A stretch of 64,000 nucleotides of DNA. Source: a virus (Duplodnaviria; Caudoviricetes). The notes beneath the pieces are model-generated. The model saw only the letters and a program-made list of their open reading frames with translations. It ran no database searches and was not told the DNA's origin. Position numbers and translations under genes: made by a program. Positions 15,586 to 48,810 of this stretch are shown here, piece by piece (within the stretch, counting starts at the first letter, position 1; each line of letters opens with the position of its first letter). The stretch lies in IMG/VR virus record IMGVR_UViG_3300034073_003276, one strand, 5' to 3'.

Positions 15586-15951
15586 TTCTTTCCAAATCCT
15601 TTTGATGTTTGTGCTTCTAACTCTTTAATTTGCTCTTTTACTGTACGAAGTTGTGCTTTCATTTCTTGAATTTTGTCATCAGTATAAAGATGATCTTGTT
15701 TGATTAATCTTTCAAGAAGTTTTACAAGTTGCTTTGCTCTTGATGTTTCAGTCATCTAAGTCAGAATCCTCAAATATTTCGTCGTAATCTAAGATTGGTC
15801 TTTTTCTCACATCTGGTTCTGTATATGAGTAAGCAGAAACATCAGAATACACTTCTGCTTTTAGAGAATCAACCAACAGTTCAAGATTACGGACGATGAG
15901 TTTTAGTTTGTCTTTGTCCATAAGATACCATTCTCTCTCAGAATTTTAGCA

Positions 15952-15981
15952 TAAAAAAAGGAGGGAATCAATCCCTCCTTT
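15952..15981 (-). terminator. Rho-independent terminator closing the micropeptide operon
   Basis: AAAGGAGGGA/TCCCTCCTTT inverted repeat followed by a T run on the minus strand. Confidence 0.75.
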
Positions 15982-15991
15982 GAATTTTTTT

Positions 15992-16075
15992 TTACTTAGA
16001 CAACCACTGAATATACAATGAAAGTAAAGTAATAAATGCGACAGACGCAACTGAAATTTGTGCGATGATTAGCAT
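15992..16075 (-). CDS. 27-aa hydrophobic micropeptide
   Basis: MLIIAQISVASVAFITLLSLYIQWLSK; TGATG coupling to the upstream ORF. Confidence 0.55.
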   Translation of the reverse strand: MLIIAQISVASVAFITLLSLYIQWLSK

Positions 16076-16170
16076 CACTTTGCTCCTGCGTTTGCTAGCA
16101 GTGCTTGGTGACGACGTTGCTCTTTTTGCTTTTGCTCTTTAATGAGTTGAAGCACATTGAGTTTTTTCAT
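16075..16170 (-). CDS. 31-aa basic, Gln-rich micropeptide
   Basis: MKKLNVLQLIKEQKQKEQRRHQALLANAGAK; GGAGG RBS and TGATG coupling. Confidence 0.65.
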   Translation of the reverse strand: MKKLNVLQLIKEQKQKEQRRHQALLANAGAK

Positions 16171-16307
16171 CACTTATGACCCTCCTTTACAAACTTAACA
16201 CCACGATAGGTTTCGTTGTATTGTTGGGGTTGTTGCATCATTTGCTGTTGATACTCAAGACGCTTTTGAGTATCATACTCTACGCCTCTGTATACGACTT
16301 TAGACAT
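16170..16307 (-). CDS. DUF4278-like small protein (45 aa)
   Basis: MSKVVYRGVEYD...ETYRGVKFVK with two YRGV motifs; AAGGAG RBS. Confidence 0.75.
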   Translation of the reverse strand: MSKVVYRGVEYDTQKRLEYQQQMMQQPQQYNETYRGVKFVKEGHK

Positions 16308-16339
16308 TAGGTTTTCTCCTTAGTTTTTAAGTTAAAGAG

Positions 16340-16436
16340 CGTTCCTTCAGTCGGCGTTTGCGTCCGCTATTTGAGAATAGCGAATGAACGTTCCGTTCCG
16401 CGTCGGCTTACTTCCGTCTGGTTTTCCAGATGAACG
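16340..16436 (-). ncRNA. Tandem glutamine-riboswitch-like aptamers (glnA/Downstream-peptide family)
   Basis: Two CGTTCA-hairpin-...-GGAACG units containing CGGAAGTAAG and GAAGGAACG; starts about 1 nt after the predicted TSS. Confidence 0.7.
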
Positions 16437-16443
16437 TAAGGTC

Positions 16444-16496
16444 ATTATAGACCCTTTCATCGTATATATCAATCTTATTTTGTAACTTTTGTTACA
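16444..16496 (-). promoter_or_regulatory. sigma70 promoter with upstream NtcA-type palindrome
   Basis: TTGATA-N17-TATAAT (16472-16444); TGTAACAAAAGTTACA = GTA-N8-TAC at 16481-16496. Confidence 0.7.
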
Positions 16497-16556
16497 ATTT
16501 TTAAAAATCTTAATAGTCAAAAAAATTGCCGGGATTTTTTCCCAGCATTTTTGAAA

Positions 16557-42600: not shown

Positions 42601-43278
42601 TAAGGTCTCAATGCTACCAATACCACTATAAGAAACATTAGTGCCTGAGAGATAATCAATAGTACCTGTGGTTACATCAAGAGTCTCAATGGTTCCAATA
42701 CCAGAAGTATTAAGATTAGTATTACTTAAGAAGTCAATAGTACCAGTAGTGGTATCTAAAGTTTCTATAGTTCCAATACCACTATAAGAAACATTAGTGC
42801 CAGAGAGGTAATCAATAGTACCTGTAGTGGTATCTAAGGTTTCTATAGTTCCAATACCAGTTATATTAATATTTCTAGCATTAAGTTCGTCGAAAGTAAT
42901 ATCATCAGAAACATAAAGATCTCCACCGACATAAAGGTCACCAGAGAATGTACTAACTCCAACAAATGTAGATACACCGGAAACATAAAGTTGATTTGAT
43001 GTAACAATACCTAAAGTTGCAATACCTGAAGAATTGATATTATCTAAAGTAGAATCGGTACTATTAAGTGTAGTAATAGTACCTACGCCAGCATTAACTT
43101 GACCATTAAAAGTAGTTGCAGTAACTACACCAGTAAATTTTCCGTTCCCTCCAACATCAAGTTCTACTGTTGGTTGTGCCGAATTTATTCCTACTAAACC
43201 ACTAGAAGTAGCAGTAATTACTGTACCTCCAACTCCTACTTCTAACCCGCGCTTTACTCTAAAATTTTGATCAGCCAA
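36691..43278 (-). CDS. Collagen-like fibre with C-terminal intramolecular chaperone (peptidase S74-like); TTG start
   Basis: Three G-X-Q blocks; C-terminal SD..QK...GVIAQE...L.EAIKE coiled coil. Confidence 0.85.
37139..41300 (-). repeat. 9-bp G-X-Q collagen-type tandem repeats in three blocks
   Basis: Plus-strand units ttgagcacc/ttgaggtcc/ttgaatacc at about 37139-38253, 38730-39840 and 40310-41300. Confidence 0.95.
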
Positions 43279-43326
43279 GGTTCACTGTCCCCTCTGCTTA
43301 TTACTTTTACTTTTTTATATTTAGTC

Positions 43327-46300
43327 TTAAATCTTTGTGGCAATAAAATTAATTACATAATTAGTTGCTGATGCTGAAGACCCAGTTGCAAGAAGTACTA
43401 AATTTCCACCAGAAATATCAACATCGAATGATGCTACGGGGGTATTATTATAAACAGTCCCATATTCAGTGTGATAAGCAGTTATATTATCGTGAAGGGT
43501 AAGAATTTTTGTGCATTGGAAATTAGTTCCCTCTGTTGCTTGGATTGTGTATTCCACAAAACGATATGCTGAAGTAGAGAGTCCAGAATGAATACTTGTC
43601 TGAAGTATAGTTGATAAAGTTGAAGTTGCAGATCCAGTAACTGTCGTAGAGTTGATTTCAATATCACCAATAACTTGAAGTTTTGATGTTGGTTGAGTAG
43701 AACCAACACCAATATTAGTTCCAGTATCAGTAATAATACTATTAGTTAATTGACCATTACCATCATCCCATTTTACAATTCTATTATCAGTTAAATTATC
43801 ACCATTCTTAAGTGCCACTGAATCAGAACTAATGGTAATACCAGTTCCAACATTAACATCGAGAGTTACATCAGAAGTTAAAGTTCCACCACCACCTAAT
43901 CCAGATCCAGCAATCACATCCCGATTAAGATTTAATGCAGTTGTAGCAACTCCCACAAGATTTCCATAAAATGTTGTTGCTGTAGTAACACCAGAAACAT
44001 AAAGTTGTGAAACAGTAACAATACCTAAAGTTGCAATCCCAGTATTGTTTATATTAGTATTACTTAAGAAATCAATAGTACCTGTAGTGGTATCTAAGGT
44101 CTCAATGCTACCAATACCACTATAAGAAACATTAGTGCCTGAGAGATAATCAATAGTACCTGTGGTTACATCAAGAGTCTCAATGGTTCCAATACCAGAA
44201 GTATTAAGATTAGTATTACTTAAGAAGTCAATAGTACCAGTAGTGGTATCTAAAGTTTCAATAGTTCCAATACCACTATAAGAAACATTAGTGCCTGAGA
44301 GATAATCAATAGTACCTGTAGTGGTATCTAAGGTTTCTATAGTTCCAATACCACTATAAGAAACATTAGTGCCTGATAAGAAATCAATGGTTGCTGTAGC
44401 GGTATCTAAGGTTTCTATAGTACCTATTCCACTATAAGAAACATTAGTACCAGAAAGGTAATCAATAGTACCAGTAGTGGTATCTAAGGTCTCAATGGTT
44501 CCAATACCTGAAGTATTCAGATTGGTATTACTTAAATAATCAATAGTACCTGTAGTGGTATCTAAAGTTTCAATAGTTCCAATGCCACTTACATTAATAT
44601 TATTAGCACTAAGTTCATCAAAAACAATATCATCAGCAACATAAAGATCCCCACCAACATAAAGGTCACCAGAGAATGTACCAACTCCAACAAATGTAGA
44701 TACACCGGAAACATAAAGTTGTGAAGCAGTAACAATACCTAAAGTTGCAATCCCAGTATTGTTTAGATTGGTATTACTTAAGAAGTCAATAGTACCAGTA
44801 GTTACATCAAGAATCTCAATGGTTCCAATACCAGTTATATTAATATTATTGGCACTAATTTCATCAAAAACAACATCATCAGCAACATAAAGATCTCCAC
44901 GAACATAAAGGTCTCCATTAAAAGTACTAATTCCATTAAATGTAGAAAATCCAGTGACAAAAAGATTTTCATTCAATAAGAAATCAATAGTACCAGTAGT
45001 TACATCAAGAGTCTCAATGGTTCCAATACCAGTTATATTAATATTTCTAGCATTAAGTTCGTCGAAAGTAATATCATCAGCAACATAAAGATCTCCACCA
45101 ACATAAAGGTCACCAGAAAATGTACTAACTCCAACGAATGTAGAAACTCCAGAAACATAAAGTTGATTTGATGTAACAATACCTAAAGTTGCAATCCCAG
45201 TATTGTTTAGATTGGTATTACTTAAGAAGTCAATAGTACCAGTAGTTACATCAAGAATCTCAATGGTTCCAATACCAGTTATATTAATATTTCTAGCACT
45301 AATTTCATCAAAAACAACATCATCAGCAACATAAAGATCTCCACCAACATAAAGGTCTCCATTAAAAGTACTGATTCCATTAAATGTAGAAAATCCAGAA
45401 ACATAAAGTTGTGAAGCAGTAACAATACCTAAAGTTGCAATCCCAGTATTGTTTAAATTAGTATTACTTAAGAAATCAATAGTACCTGTAGTGGTATCTA
45501 AGGTCTCTATAGTTCCAATACCAGTTATATTAATATTTCTAGCACTAATTTCATCAAAAACAACATCATCAGCAACATAAAGATCTCCACGAACATAAAG
45601 GTCTCCATTAAAAGTACTGATTCCATTAAATGTAGAAAATCCAGTGACAAAAAGATTTTCATTCAATAAGAAATCAATAGTACCTGTAGTAGTATCTAAG
45701 GTCTCTATAGTTCCAATACCAGTTATATTAATATTTCTAGCACTAATTTCATCAAAAACAACATCATCAGCAACATAAAGATCTCCACCAACATAAAGGT
45801 CACCAGAGAATGTACTAACTCCAACGAATGTAGAAACTCCAGAAACATAAAGTTGTGAAGTGGTAACAATACCTAAAGTTGCAATTCCAGTATTGTTTAA
45901 ATTAGTATTACTTAAATAATCAATAGTACCAGTAGTTACATCAAGAGTCTCAATGGTTCCAATGCCACTTACATTAATATTATTAGCACTAATTTCATCA
46001 AAAACAACATCATCAGCAACATAAAGATCTCCACCAACATAAAGGTCACCAGAAAATGTACTAACTCCAACGAATGTAGAAACTCCAGAAACATAAAGTT
46101 GATTTGATGTAACAATACCTAAAGTTGCAATCCCAGTATTGTTTAGATTGGTATTACTTAAGAAGTCAATAGTACCAGTAGTGGTATCTAAGGTCTCAAT
46201 GGTTCCAATACCACTATAAGAAACATTAGTGCCAGAGAGGTAATCAATAGTACCAGTGGTGGTATCTAAGGTTTCAATGGTTCCAATACCACTATAAGAA

Positions 46301-48810
46301 ACATTAGTGCCTGATAAGAAATCAATAGTTGCTGTAGTGGTATCTAAAGTTTCAATAGTTCCAATACCTGAAGTATTCAGATTGGTATTACTTAAATAAT
46401 CAATAGTACCAGTAGTTACATCAAGAGTCTCAATGGTACCAATACCACTATAAGAAACATTAGTGCCAGAGAGGTAATCAATGGTTGCTGTAGTGGTATC
46501 TAAGGTCTCAATGGTACCAATACCAGAAGTATTAAGATTAGTATTACTTAAGAAGTCAATAGTACCTGTAGTGGTATCTAAGGTCTCAATGGTTCCGATA
46601 CCTGAAGTATTAAGATTAGTATTACTTAAGAAGTCAATAGTACCTGTAGTGGTATCTAAGGTCTCAATGGTACCTATTCCACTATAAGAAACATTATTAC
46701 CAGAAAGGTAATCAATGGTTGCTATAGTAGTATCTAAGGTCTCAATGGTACCTATTCCACTATAAGAAACATTAGTGCCTGATAAGAAATCAATGATTGC
46801 TGTAGTGGTATCTAAAGTTTCAATGGTTCCAATACCACTATAAGAAACATTAGTGCCTGATAAGAAATCAATAGTACCTGTAGTGGTATCTAAGGTCTCA
46901 ATGGTTCCAATACCAATTGCATAAATATTTGGAACTGTTAGTTGATTAGAACTTAATACTTCAACTTCATTAATTTTATAAACTTTACCAGATTCTAAAT
47001 CAAAGTTTTCACTCGATTTTAGAGAATCGCTAGAATAATCATATGTTAAAGTTTTACGAATATTTACAGATCCAATTCCAATTCCAGCACCATCAAGAAG
47101 AAAATTAGTTCCTACTGTAGTTGCTATACCTACATTAAAATCGGCAAATTCAATTGTTGTTGAATTAACAATAAATTCCGTACCTTCTACATATAGATCA
47201 CCTTTAATTCTTACTATACCACTTGTAGTTCCAACGCCAACTGGATGAGGGTCAATAATTAAAACTTCCGGACCACTTATAGTATCTGCAGTAATATTAA
47301 TTGAAGTCGAAGAAGGTCCAGTTGAAAACTGAGTTGCAGTTATAATACCAGAAGAATCAATATTAGTATTACTTAAGAAGTCAATAGTACCAGTAGTGGT
47401 ATCTAAAGTCTCAATGGTTCCAATACCACTATAAGAAACATTAGTGCCAGAGAGGTAATCAATAGTACCAGTGGTGGTATCTAAGGTTTCAATGGTTCCA
47501 ATACCACTATAAGAAACATTAGTGCCTGATAAGAAATCAATAGTTGCTGTAGTGGTATCTAAAGTTTCAATAGTTCCAATACCACTATAAGAAACATTAG
47601 TACCAGAAAGGTAATCAATAGTACCAGTAGTGGTATCTAAGGTCTCAATGGTTCCAATACCTAAAGTATCCAGATTGGTATTACTTAAATAATCAATAGT
47701 ACCAGTAGTTACATCAAGAGTCTCAATGGTACCAATACCAGAAGTATTAAGATTAGTATTACTTAAGAAGTCAATAGTACCTGTAGTGGTATCTAAGGTC
47801 TCAATGGTTCCAATACCTGAAGTATTCAGATTAGTATTACTTAAGAAGTCAATAGTACCTGTAGTGGTATCTAAGGTCTCAATGGTTCCAATACCACTAT
47901 AAGAAACATTAGTGCCTGATAAGAAATCAATAGTACCAGTAGTTACATCAAGAGTCTCAATGGTACCAATACCAGAAGTATTAAGATTAGTATTACTTAA
48001 GAAGTCAATAGTACCTGTAGTGGTATCTAAGGTCTCAATGGTACCTATTCCACTATAAGAAACATTATTACCAGAAAGGTAATCAATGGTTGCTATAGTA
48101 GTATCTAAGGTCTCAATGGTACCTATTCCACTATAAGAAACATTAGTGCCTGATAAGAAATCAATGATTGCTGTAGTGGTATCTAAAGTTTCAATAGTTC
48201 CAATACCAGTTATATTAATATTTCTAGCATTAAGTTCGTCGAAAGTAATATCATCAGCAACATAAAGATCCCCACCAACATAAAGATCTCCACCTGTTGT
48301 TGTAATACCGCCAGCAGAGGCAAGTGTTGCGACCCCTACAACATTTAAAGTCTCTGAAATATTAGTTATATCAAGTTCCGTTATACCTTCTACATTCAGA
48401 TTTCCATTAGCATCAATAGAATCAGTAAATGTAGAAACTCCTGTGACACTTAAATTGCCAGTAAGAATTGCGTTTCTTGCAGTAAACTCATCAAAGATTA
48501 AATCATCCGCAACATAAAGATCTCCACCAACATATAAATCTCCACCAGTCGTAACAATACCACTAGTTGCCGCTAATGTAGTAATTCCAGAAACATAAAG
48601 TTGCCCAAAAGAAGAAGAGGCACTTACATCAATATTTGTAGCAGTTACAACACCTGTAAAATATCCATCTCCTACAACATATAATGCAGATGTAGCATTT
48701 GTAGTTCCTATACCAACATTACCAACAATATCTAATACGGTTTTATTTTCGGTAAAACTATTAATACCAATACTTAAATTTCTTTGTCTACCGCTGAGGA
48801 ACTTTGCCAT
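43327..48810 (-). CDS. Long Thr/Ser-rich repeat fibre or virion structural protein
   Basis: Dozens of 26-aa [16 protein letters not shown](F/Y)LS... units and [11 protein letters not shown] repeats. Confidence 0.75.
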   Translation of the reverse strand: MAKFLSGRQRNLSIGINSFTENKTVLDIVGNVGIGTTNATSALYVVGDGYFTGVVTATNIDVSASSSFGQLYVSGITTLAATSGIVTTGGDLYVGGDLYVADDLIFDEFTARNAILTGNLSVTGVSTFTDSIDANGNLNVEGITELDITNISETLNVVGVATLASAGGITTTGGDLYVGGDLYVADDITFDELNARNINITGIGTIETLDTTTAIIDFLSGTNVSYSGIGTIETLDTTIATIDYLSGNNVSYSGIGTIETLDTTTGTIDFLSNTNLNTSGIGTIETLDVTTGTIDFLSGTNVSYSGIGTIETLDTTTGTIDFLSNTNLNTSGIGTIETLDTTTGTIDFLSNTNLNTSGIGTIETLDVTTGTIDYLSNTNLDTLGIGTIETLDTTTGTIDYLSGTNVSYSGIGTIETLDTTTATIDFLSGTNVSYSGIGTIETLDTTTGTIDYLSGTNVSYSGIGTIETLDTTTGTIDFLSNTNIDSSGIITATQFSTGPSSTSINITADTISGPEVLIIDPHPVGVGTTSGIVRIKGDLYVEGTEFIVNSTTIEFADFNVGIATTVGTNFLLDGAGIGIGSVNIRKTLTYDYSSDSLKSSENFDLESGKVYKINEVEVLSSNQLTVPNIYAIGIGTIETLDTTTGTIDFLSGTNVSYSGIGTIETLDTTTAIIDFLSGTNVSYSGIGTIETLDTTIATIDYLSGNNVSYSGIGTIETLDTTTGTIDFLSNTNLNTSGIGTIETLDTTTGTIDFLSNTNLNTSGIGTIETLDTTTATIDYLSGTNVSYSGIGTIETLDVTTGTIDYLSNTNLNTSGIGTIETLDTTTATIDFLSGTNVSYSGIGTIETLDTTTGTIDYLSGTNVSYSGIGTIETLDTTTGTIDFLSNTNLNNTGIATLGIVTSNQLYVSGVSTFVGVSTFSGDLYVGGDLYVADDVVFDEISANNINVSGIGTIETLDVTTGTIDYLSNTNLNNTGIATLGIVTTSQLYVSGVSTFVGVSTFSGDLYVGGDLYVADDVVFDEISARNINITGIGTIETLDTTTGTIDFLLNENLFVTGFSTFNGISTFNGDLYVRGDLYVADDVVFDEISARNINITGIGTIETLDTTTGTIDFLSNTNLNNTGIATLGIVTASQLYVSGFSTFNGISTFNGDLYVGGDLYVADDVVFDEISARNINITGIGTIEILDVTTGTIDFLSNTNLNNTGIATLGIVTSNQLYVSGVSTFVGVSTFSGDLYVGGDLYVADDITFDELNARNINITGIGTIETLDVTTGTIDFLLNENLFVTGFSTFNGISTFNGDLYVRGDLYVADDVVFDEISANNINITGIGTIEILDVTTGTIDFLSNTNLNNTGIATLGIVTASQLYVSGVSTFVGVGTFSGDLYVGGDLYVADDIVFDELSANNINVSGIGTIETLDTTTGTIDYLSNTNLNTSGIGTIETLDTTTGTIDYLSGTNVSYSGIGTIETLDTATATIDFLSGTNVSYSGIGTIETLDTTTGTIDYLSGTNVSYSGIGTIETLDTTTGTIDFLSNTNLNTSGIGTIETLDVTTGTIDYLSGTNVSYSGIGSIETLDTTTGTIDFLSNTNINNTGIATLGIVTVSQLYVSGVTTATTFYGNLVGVATTALNLNRDVIAGSGLGGGGTLTSDVTLDVNVGTGITISSDSVALKNGDNLTDNRIVKWDDGNGQLTNSIITDTGTNIGVGSTQPTSKLQVIGDIEINSTTVTGSATSTLSTILQTSIHSGLSTSAYRFVEYTIQATEGTNFQCTKILTLHDNITAYHTEYGTVYNNTPVASFDVDISGGNLVLLATGSSASATNYVINFIATKI

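Follow-up and report, generated by a model that had tools for sequence, protein, structure and literature searches.

A compact transcription unit in a viral DNA fragment (IMG/VR record IMGVR_UViG_3300034073_003276; the stretch analyzed, 64,000 nucleotides [nt] long, is referred to as the window) is best read as an autonomous, nitrogen-status-controlled unit that encodes three small proteins in a freshwater cyanomyovirus resembling Synechococcus phage S-SRM01. We put the probability of this reading at about 0.7. The window belongs to a T4-like cyanophage, the nearest isolate of which is the freshwater phage S-SRM01 (75% identity; gene order shared). The unit occupies positions 16547 to 15950 of the minus strand, on which all of its features lie, and comprises, in this order, an NtcA-type dyad, a promoter, an RNA leader, a strong ribosome-binding site, and three overlapping open reading frames (ORFs; 45, 31, and 27 codons), with an intrinsic terminator at each end. 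An initial annotation had described a self-contained operon with an NtcA box, a promoter, a glutamine riboswitch, three micropeptides, and a terminator. Reading of the minus strand and scans found all of these elements in the positions given for them, and the description as self-contained was borne out by the terminators bounding both sides and the sigma-70-type promoter inside. The same ordered architecture is present in S-SRM01, S-PM2, P-TIM68, Bellamy, S-CREM1, and DSL-LC02/03, and an IMG/VR scan with the junction between the two units of the leader (see below) yielded at least 120 loci. Because of this recurrence, we regard the ordered unit as a conserved module rather than a product of chance. 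For the comparisons that follow, 126 distinct units were drawn from the IMG/VR matches listed, and approximately 125 related cyanophage loci were compared overall.

The upstream boundary is the intrinsic terminator of the preceding gene (16517-16547), in which an 8-bp stem (16547-16527) is followed by ATTTTTTT. This terminator is also found upstream in several relatives and insulates the unit from transcription of the preceding gene. The unit itself ends in a second terminator (15950-15981), which has the G+C-rich hairpin and subsequent T-run that define intrinsic terminators (10-bp stem, 15981-15957, then TTTTTTT); S-SRM01 has the same hairpin at the end of its unit.

The leader begins with a glutamine-I (glnA-type) riboswitch aptamer region (16340-16436) composed of unit 1 (16436-16394) and unit 2 (16390-16340). 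Two Rfam models had been named for checking this element. The glnA model (RF01739; gathering score, 35 bits) matched twice in a local scan, at 16436-16394 (26.3 bits; E value, 2.3e-3) and 16392-16336 (29.1 bits; E value, 3.6e-4), both scores lying below 35, whereas the Downstream-peptide model (RF01704) reached only 13 bits. The whole-window Rfam gathering scan missed the glutamine riboswitch element. The homologous elements of ten named phages scored 28.9 to 35.6 bits against RF01739, and unit 1 of several phage relatives also gave weak RF01704 matches. The S-CREM1 element is annotated as a glnA riboswitch in its record, and the whole homologous elements of S-CREM1 and P-TIM68 were single glnA matches of 44 and 46.7 bits, respectively, in an older Rfam-based annotation (PMC9964418).

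The fold is supported by covariation in an alignment of 30 compact units (alignment A1). Of the cells at proposed pairs, 93.7% are paired (84.9% in shuffles), 15 pairs change on both sides (shuffle mean, 7.6), and shifted registers drop to 31 to 51% paired. Changes on both sides affect 5 of the 5 pairs of hairpin 1 and 6 of the 9 pairs of hairpin 2; thus, the variable hairpins are backed by covariation, and the P1 strands CGUUC/GAACG are present and invariant. An additional helix bridges the two units, its 5' strand AGCCGACG (16401-16408) pairing with its 3' strand CGCCGACU (16349-16356). Four of its pairs change on both sides in A1, one of them running through G-C, U-A, and A-U, and the 106 units listed contain 17 partner combinations (e.g., AAGUCG/CGACU, AAGUCA/UGACU, and AGGACGG/CCGCCC). 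An energy comparison of cognate and noncognate partners of this helix was set aside as uninformative, given the small difference (-3.6 versus -2.8 kcal/mol).

The distribution of the conserved junctions between the units is complementary. Unit 1 contains the conserved ACGGAAGUA and has no GAAG, and unit 2 contains GAAGGAACG and has ACGCAAA at its other junction, so that the junctions ACGGAAGUA and GAAG flank P3 together only when both units are taken as a single aptamer. No conserved feature of a type 1 aptamer is missing when the first CGUUC pairs with the last GAACG as an outer P1 and the bridging helix serves as P3; the P3 loop then holds a GAACG-GAU-CGUUC hairpin and the second hairpin. 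RNAalifold, the minimum-free-energy fold of RNAfold, and energy evaluation (-21.8 versus -17.8 kcal/mol) all gave this nested topology. Because a covarying helix joins the halves, we lean, at somewhat better than even odds, toward two half-degenerate units that form a single composite glutamine-I aptamer. The initial annotation was right to place a glutamine-riboswitch-class RNA from approximately +2, and its tandem aptamers are replaced by what is more likely one composite.

The last aptamer strand is directly followed by an anti-Shine-Dalgarno (anti-SD) sequence, CUCUUUA (16339-16333), which pairs with the SD sequence UAAGGAG (16322-16316) in the minimum-free-energy fold, and the two delimit a putative expression platform (16316-16339). 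The ribosome-binding site (TAAGGAG in the DNA) lies 8 nt ahead of the ATG at 16307, and the anti-SD/SD duplex has an energy of -6.9 kcal/mol, compared with -4.2 kcal/mol in shuffles. The pairing occurs throughout the subfamily to which the window belongs, and one other subfamily uses CCUAAA with UUUAGG; it is not general across all relatives, being unclear in the remaining subfamilies. In the host gene gifB, a sequence after the aptamer has been proposed to pair with the ribosome-binding site, and glutamine turns translation on (PMC6212724). By analogy, glutamine binding to the phage leader would alter the anti-SD/SD pairing, probably opening the ribosome-binding site at high glutamine, and we infer that the phage switch is likewise turned ON by glutamine.

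The promoter (16444-16472) consists of TTGATA (16472-16467), a 17-nt spacer, and TATAAT (16449-16444); with 11 of 12 consensus matches, it is the top promoter-like site of the region. Its expected start site is 16437, and the CGTTCA of the aptamer begins one base later (16436). Relatives conserve the form TTGACT-N17-TATAAT. Upstream lies the dyad TGTAAC-AAAA-GTTACA (16481-16496), the GTA-N8-TAC core of which (16482-16495) is centered at approximately -51.5. When 78 distinct related promoters listed were anchored on the -35 element, a perfect GTA-N8-TAC started exactly 22 nt before it in 41 of them, and the inner eight bases varied; a few others have the dyad 5 to 6 nt closer, and still others carry decayed copies. 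Such a pattern would be expected of a site bound by a dimeric protein, and it agrees with the NtcA consensus GTA-N8-TAC (PMC6212724, PMC3037559). A class II NtcA-activated promoter would have GTA-N8-TAC approximately 22 nt upstream of a TAN3T -10 element, centered at -41.5 and replacing the -35 element, whereas the dyad stands 32 nt from the -10 hexamer in the window and a TTGATA -35 element is present. In Synechocystis, 71% of the binding sites of NtcA-induced genes lie at -41 to -44, and the sites of NtcA-repressed genes spread from -69 to +83 (PMC5714215); the center at -51.5 falls within the latter range, with no overlap of the core promoter. Given the position of the dyad and the strength of the near-consensus promoter, repression is favored over activation, and the dyad is probably an operator for host NtcA that lowers transcription when 2-oxoglutarate is high. 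The claim of an NtcA box thus holds for a perfect, conserved consensus dyad and fails for the geometry of activation. A window-wide count of GTA-N8-TAC was rejected as evidence for NtcA (24 occurrences versus 10.8 expected) because the excess arises from a repeated coding region at 42.6 to 48 kb. This apparently repetitive coding region (42662-47946, plus strand) contains at least 13 copies of GTACCAGTAGTTAC, GTAATCAATAGTAC, and similar words in approximately 5 kb.

Together, these features outline how the unit may operate. Host RNA polymerase would transcribe it autonomously from approximately 16437, and host NtcA loaded with 2-oxoglutarate would likely bind the dyad, more probably damping transcription under nitrogen shortage than activating it. 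The mRNA would open with a glutamine-I-class aptamer to which unit 1 contributes ACGGAAGUA and unit 2 contributes GAAG, with the bridging helix acting as P3. The three ORFs would then be translated by coupled initiation before the terminator ends the unit, which would place three small proteins under nitrogen-status control. NtcA repression combined with a glutamine ON switch would reproduce the logic of host gifB.

The first of the three proteins, ORF1 (16170-16307; 45 amino acids [aa]), is DUF4278-like and contains two YRG motifs; ORF2 (16075-16170; 31 aa; family alignment A3) is a basic helical peptide with its own GGAGG; and ORF3 (15992-16075; 27 aa; family alignment A4) is a hydrophobic single-span micropeptide. 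The stop codon of ORF1 and the start codon of ORF2 overlap as TGATG, as do those of ORF2 and ORF3. The sole Pfam match of ORF1 is DUF4278 (PF14105; 19.1 bits; E value, 1.7e-3), at a score under the cutoff of 25.3; DUF4278 is also the only family match for 8 of 10 ORF1 relatives (20.3 to 31.1 bits, one above the cutoff). ORF1 matches phrog_5049 (E value, 1e-10) and has 272 homologous protein clusters, all of which are unnamed, and its nearest Atlas clusters carry DUF4278 (score, 0.96). All related loci listed with a called downstream ORF have a YRG/DUF4278-type gene; in the window, the aptamer ends 32 nt before ORF1. Some members of the ORF2 family are encoded by a separate overlapping gene, and others are fused to a DUF4278 domain, at the N terminus in phrog_545 proteins (e.g., those of SynMITS9220M01 and S-T4) and at the C terminus in S-CREM1, and these fusions suggest that ORF2 is functionally linked to ORF1. 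ORF3 homologs hold the same operon position in many loci. Codon position 3 accounts for 14 of the 17 natural variants listed in ORF1 and all 5 in ORF2, as read from RNA-library contigs of related phages. The TGATG overlaps, the family alignments, and the third-position variants in ORF1 and ORF2 bear out the proposed DUF4278-like gene with two translationally coupled micropeptides and indicate that all three ORFs are real genes.

DUF4278 constitutes the N-terminal part of IF17, a glutamine synthetase inactivating factor, the C-terminal part of which binds and inactivates the enzyme (PMC6212724). The DUF4278 match covers residues 3 to 38 of the 45 aa of ORF1, leaving no room for a C-terminal IF7-like part, a judgment made from length and DUF4278 span without aligning an IF17 sequence. 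Picocyanobacterial (Prochlorococcus) IF17-like proteins likewise have no C-terminal part (Klahn et al., PMC6212724). An effect of ORF1 on glutamine synthetase, which had been suggested for these peptides, is possible but improbable; it is unsupported because ORF1 is too short to include the enzyme-binding part. A search of PDB sequences with the ORF1 family profile returned nothing at E values up to 10, and the AlphaFold2 model of ORF1 (mean predicted local distance difference test score [pLDDT], 63.9; predicted template modeling score [pTM], 0.27) was too weak for a fold search. Prediction of an ORF1-ORF2 complex (alignments A5 and A6) gave a score of 0.00, which is evidence neither way. In many relatives, but not in the window, the operon is extended by further small proteins containing YRG (..DDMDKDNRPPACYQLTYRGC.YWSCY.. 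and ..LTYRG..YAKW.., phrog_6192), such as those on the minus strand at L012:2317-2484, L025:1716-1871, and L067:10033-10185.

Several observations weigh against the reading of an autonomous, nitrogen-controlled unit, beginning with the RNA. Each aptamer unit alone (26.3 and 29.1 bits) falls under the RF01739 gathering score, and the junctions are altered in unit 2 and, in many relatives, also in unit 1 (ACGCAAGUA instead of the consensus). Low scores and altered junctions would suit a conserved structured RNA that has lost glutamine sensing and serves as a stability or processing element or binds another ligand. We consider such a loss of sensing quite improbable, as the composite reading restores all of the core elements (CGUUCA, ACGGAAGUA, P3, and GAAGGAACG) and the leader occurs strictly together with DUF4278-type genes, as it does in hosts (PMC6212724). 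In addition, the P1 strands never vary, so that covariation cannot choose between the tandem and nested folds, and the bridging helix in its long form, which the window shares, has two conserved mismatches and a weak nearest-neighbor energy. With all four P1 strands invariant, either pairing is possible, and the leader could contain two tandem aptamers that form separate P1 helices and work independently, sensing glutamine cooperatively or at two thresholds; Rfam aligns the units separately, and tandem glnA RNAs are on record (PMC2864571). This arrangement seems to us a minority possibility. Unit 1 is without GAAG and unit 2 has ACGCAAA instead of ACGGAAGUA, leaving the full core in neither alone; the covarying interunit helix would become a pseudoknot; and both thermodynamic and alignment folds favor the nested topology of the composite aptamer.

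Other observations concern the dyad, which is absent in approximately 40% of the relatives listed, lies in a different position (approximately 20 nt nearer the aptamer, beside a remodeled promoter) in S-SRM01, S-CREM1, and DSL-LC02, and in the window is 10 bp farther upstream than classical NtcA activation would require. The palindrome may therefore not be an NtcA site at all but a site for another host factor or a dimeric phage protein, or a neutral relic, with control exerted at the RNA level only. In line with this view are the absence or decay of the dyad in these relatives, its center at -51.5 beside full -35 and -10 elements, where the class II geometry failed, and the uninformative window-wide count, in which most sites belong to the repeated coding region. 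We judge a site unrelated to NtcA to be possible, though clearly the less probable case: the exact GTA and TAC, the varying inner eight bases, and the fixed offset in 41 of the 78 promoters correspond to the NtcA consensus (PMC6212724, PMC3037559), the dyad is kept even beside the remodeled promoters of S-SRM01 and S-CREM1, and the NtcA sites of repressed genes vary widely in position (PMC5714215).

The sign of control could also be reversed, with glutamine turning translation off, NtcA activating transcription, or both, such that the peptides would be made under nitrogen shortage during infection. Cyanophages have been proposed to exploit NtcA-driven nitrogen-stress promoters (Sullivan et al., PMC3037559), and, judging from the sequence, purine-rich junction strands of the ligand-free aptamer could compete for the pyrimidine anti-SD. 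We nevertheless find a reversed switch unlikely. The homologous host arrangement combines an ON switch with NtcA repression (PMC6212724), a promoter with consensus hexamers needs no activator, and the position of the dyad does not match the -41 to -44 class seen for activated genes (PMC5714215).

A further difficulty for a simple sigma-70 start is a covarying hairpin around the -10 hexamer, which in the window is an inverted repeat (AGGGTC/GACCTT; 16438-16455) enclosing the hexamer. Among distinct relatives listed, 64 of 83 fold at this hairpin with z scores below -2, with 53 different stems; the stem covaries, measures 4 to 9 bp, and ends 1 to 3 nt before the aptamer. A transcript from the sigma-70 start cannot include the 5' arm of this hairpin, which hints at a second, upstream start. 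The conserved TTGAC-TAWATA of the -35 region overlaps a motif resembling T4-type late promoters that is located 7 to 9 nt ahead of the stem. Transcription might also begin at such an upstream site, in which case the RNA would carry the hairpin at its 5' terminus, or the structure might form at the DNA level.

RNA-library contigs hint that the transcript may be abundant. In runs of two of the three studies compared, contigs of 88% or greater similarity span 16081-16435, with a summed word depth that is mostly approximately 50 to 1,000 (approximately 14 at the 5' end in one run), compared with 0 to 5.5 in the flanks. These contigs come from related phages and show neither the start site nor true expression levels, and their high depth may reflect the conservation of 16081-16435, both of which are likewise points against reading them as support. 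The lack of RNA contigs over 15952-16039, and upstream of 16436 in three runs, should not be taken to show absence, and one low-depth contig of run X16 that crosses the promoter is not interpretable.

In relatives, the aptamer hairpins themselves carry genes. The second hairpin is expanded to 157 to 215 nt in 77 of the 113 distinct units listed (e.g., L001:1711-1887 [S-SRM01], L003:1057-1228, and L008:1306-1487), and 73 of these 77 expanded hairpins hold an ORF of 49 to 66 codons (phrog_504). All 75 expanded loops tested keep a covarying closing stem of 4 to 9 bp, which often contains an ATG. The nested phrog_504 ORF starts at an ATG located within or beside the stem's 5' strand and ends in codons (..WDAND or ..IDAKAD, then stop) that double as the conserved aptamer core GACGCAAAC. 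The first hairpin is apparently expanded likewise in 29 loci among the matches listed. The window thus represents the compact form, and the nearest isolate, S-SRM01, represents the expanded form. A bolder reading, which we consider less likely than not, is that cyanomyoviruses have a glutamine riboswitch architecture of their own, in which one pocket is formed by two half-units across the bridging helix, genes reside in hairpin loops in most relatives, and an NtcA operator allows both 2-oxoglutarate and glutamine to be read. If so, a leader with a nested gene could either have that gene translated or sense its ligand, but not both at once, because the start codon is in the stem and the last codons are the aptamer core, and the two signals would time micropeptides (i.e., the DUF4278-like, partner, and membrane peptides) that retune host nitrogen assimilation.

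A DNA-pattern scan of bacterial genomes gave mostly chance matches among the first 120 listed, and 3 real units. These three (L208, L141, and L227) are on contigs that resemble phage DNA binned with bacteria; L208, for example, has 193,981 bases and is filed under a Synechococcus metagenome-assembled genome.

The closest known counterpart is gifB (IF17) of Synechocystis sp. PCC 6803, which combines an NtcA-repressed promoter, a type 1 glutamine riboswitch, and a DUF4278 protein (Klahn et al. 2018, PMC6212724). The phage unit shares with it GTA-N8-TAC at the promoter, a glnA-class aptamer in the 5' untranslated region, an anti-SD after the aptamer, and a downstream DUF4278-family gene. It differs in its bridged two-unit composite aptamer, in a dyad that lies upstream of a full -35 element (the gifB site overlaps the core promoter), and in a protein of only 45 aa that is too short for the enzyme-binding part of IF17 and is accompanied by two extra coupled micropeptide genes. 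Glutamine-II (RF01704) riboswitches precede IF17-like small proteins in marine picocyanobacteria, and Prochlorococcus MED4 has an NtcA site at the start site (PMC6212724). These systems resemble the phage unit in their short DUF4278-only proteins and in combining a glutamine aptamer with putative NtcA control; they differ in aptamer class, the window reaching only 13 bits for RF01704, and in the host site, which overlaps the start site rather than being centered at approximately -51.5.

Among phages, RF01739 members have been annotated in cyanophages S-CREM1, P-TIM68, and ACG-2014f (PMC9964418 Table 4 and Table S7; McCown et al. 2017, PMC5473149). Those RNAs are homologous and occupy a similar locus, and the S-CREM1 and P-TIM68 elements align with that of the window; unlike them, reported as database matches only, the window copy falls below the current gathering score. 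Intergenic GTA-N8-TAC sites in T4-like cyanophages have been interpreted as tying these phages to the 2-oxoglutarate status of the host (Sullivan et al. 2010, PMC3037559). In that proposal the sites drive phage genes, whereas the geometry of the window points to modulation of a strong promoter, with a riboswitch in addition. The pairing of two aptamer units in one leader also has a wider precedent. In the tandem glycine riboswitch, two aptamer domains are held by interdomain contacts. The phage leader resembles it in that two related aptamer units are physically joined, but here a Watson-Crick helix completes a single core instead of joining two complete sites.

Cyanophage glutamine riboswitches (PMC5473149; PMC9964418), tandem glnA RNAs (PMC2864571), cyanomyovirus NtcA sites (PMC3037559), and the gifB combination (PMC6212724) are thus already known. 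In the literature examined, we found no description of a module with promoter and dyad at fixed spacing, of a bridging helix with a composite fold, of a modular micropeptide operon and its gene fusions, of the -10 hairpin, or of protein genes in aptamer loops. No paper dealing with DUF4278 or IF17-like proteins of phages came up in the literature search, and the S-SRM01 genome paper does not mention the riboswitch element. Phages are considered to carry riboswitches only rarely (PMC5473149), and those for glutamine in cyanophages have so far been database matches only; here, one heads a conserved modular micropeptide operon. The element is very widespread, as indicated by the at least 120 IMG/VR loci and the 272 ORF1 protein clusters, and RNA libraries contain related copies in abundance. 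The unit would mirror the two-level control of the host gene for a glutamine synthetase inhibitor, with 2-oxoglutarate acting via NtcA and glutamine via RNA. It therefore offers a testable case of a virus that reads host nitrogen status, and of small proteins that annotation misses, and a bridged composite aptamer with genes in its loops (as in relatives) could extend known riboswitch architecture.

Elsewhere in the window, a PhotoRC-II RNA (RF01717; 61495-61589, minus strand; 81.1 bits; E value, 1.7e-12) is the sole above-threshold Rfam match. Downstream of the unit lies a gene for a 57-aa protein with an acidic tail (15748-15921, minus strand; MDKDKLKLIVRNLELL...). A promoter-like site of this gene (15971-15943), with a TGn-extended -10 element, overlaps the terminator of the riboswitch unit. 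S-PM2, Bellamy, P-TIM68, S-SKS1, and many IMG/VR loci also have this 57-aa gene after the riboswitch operon, typically before thymidylate synthase.

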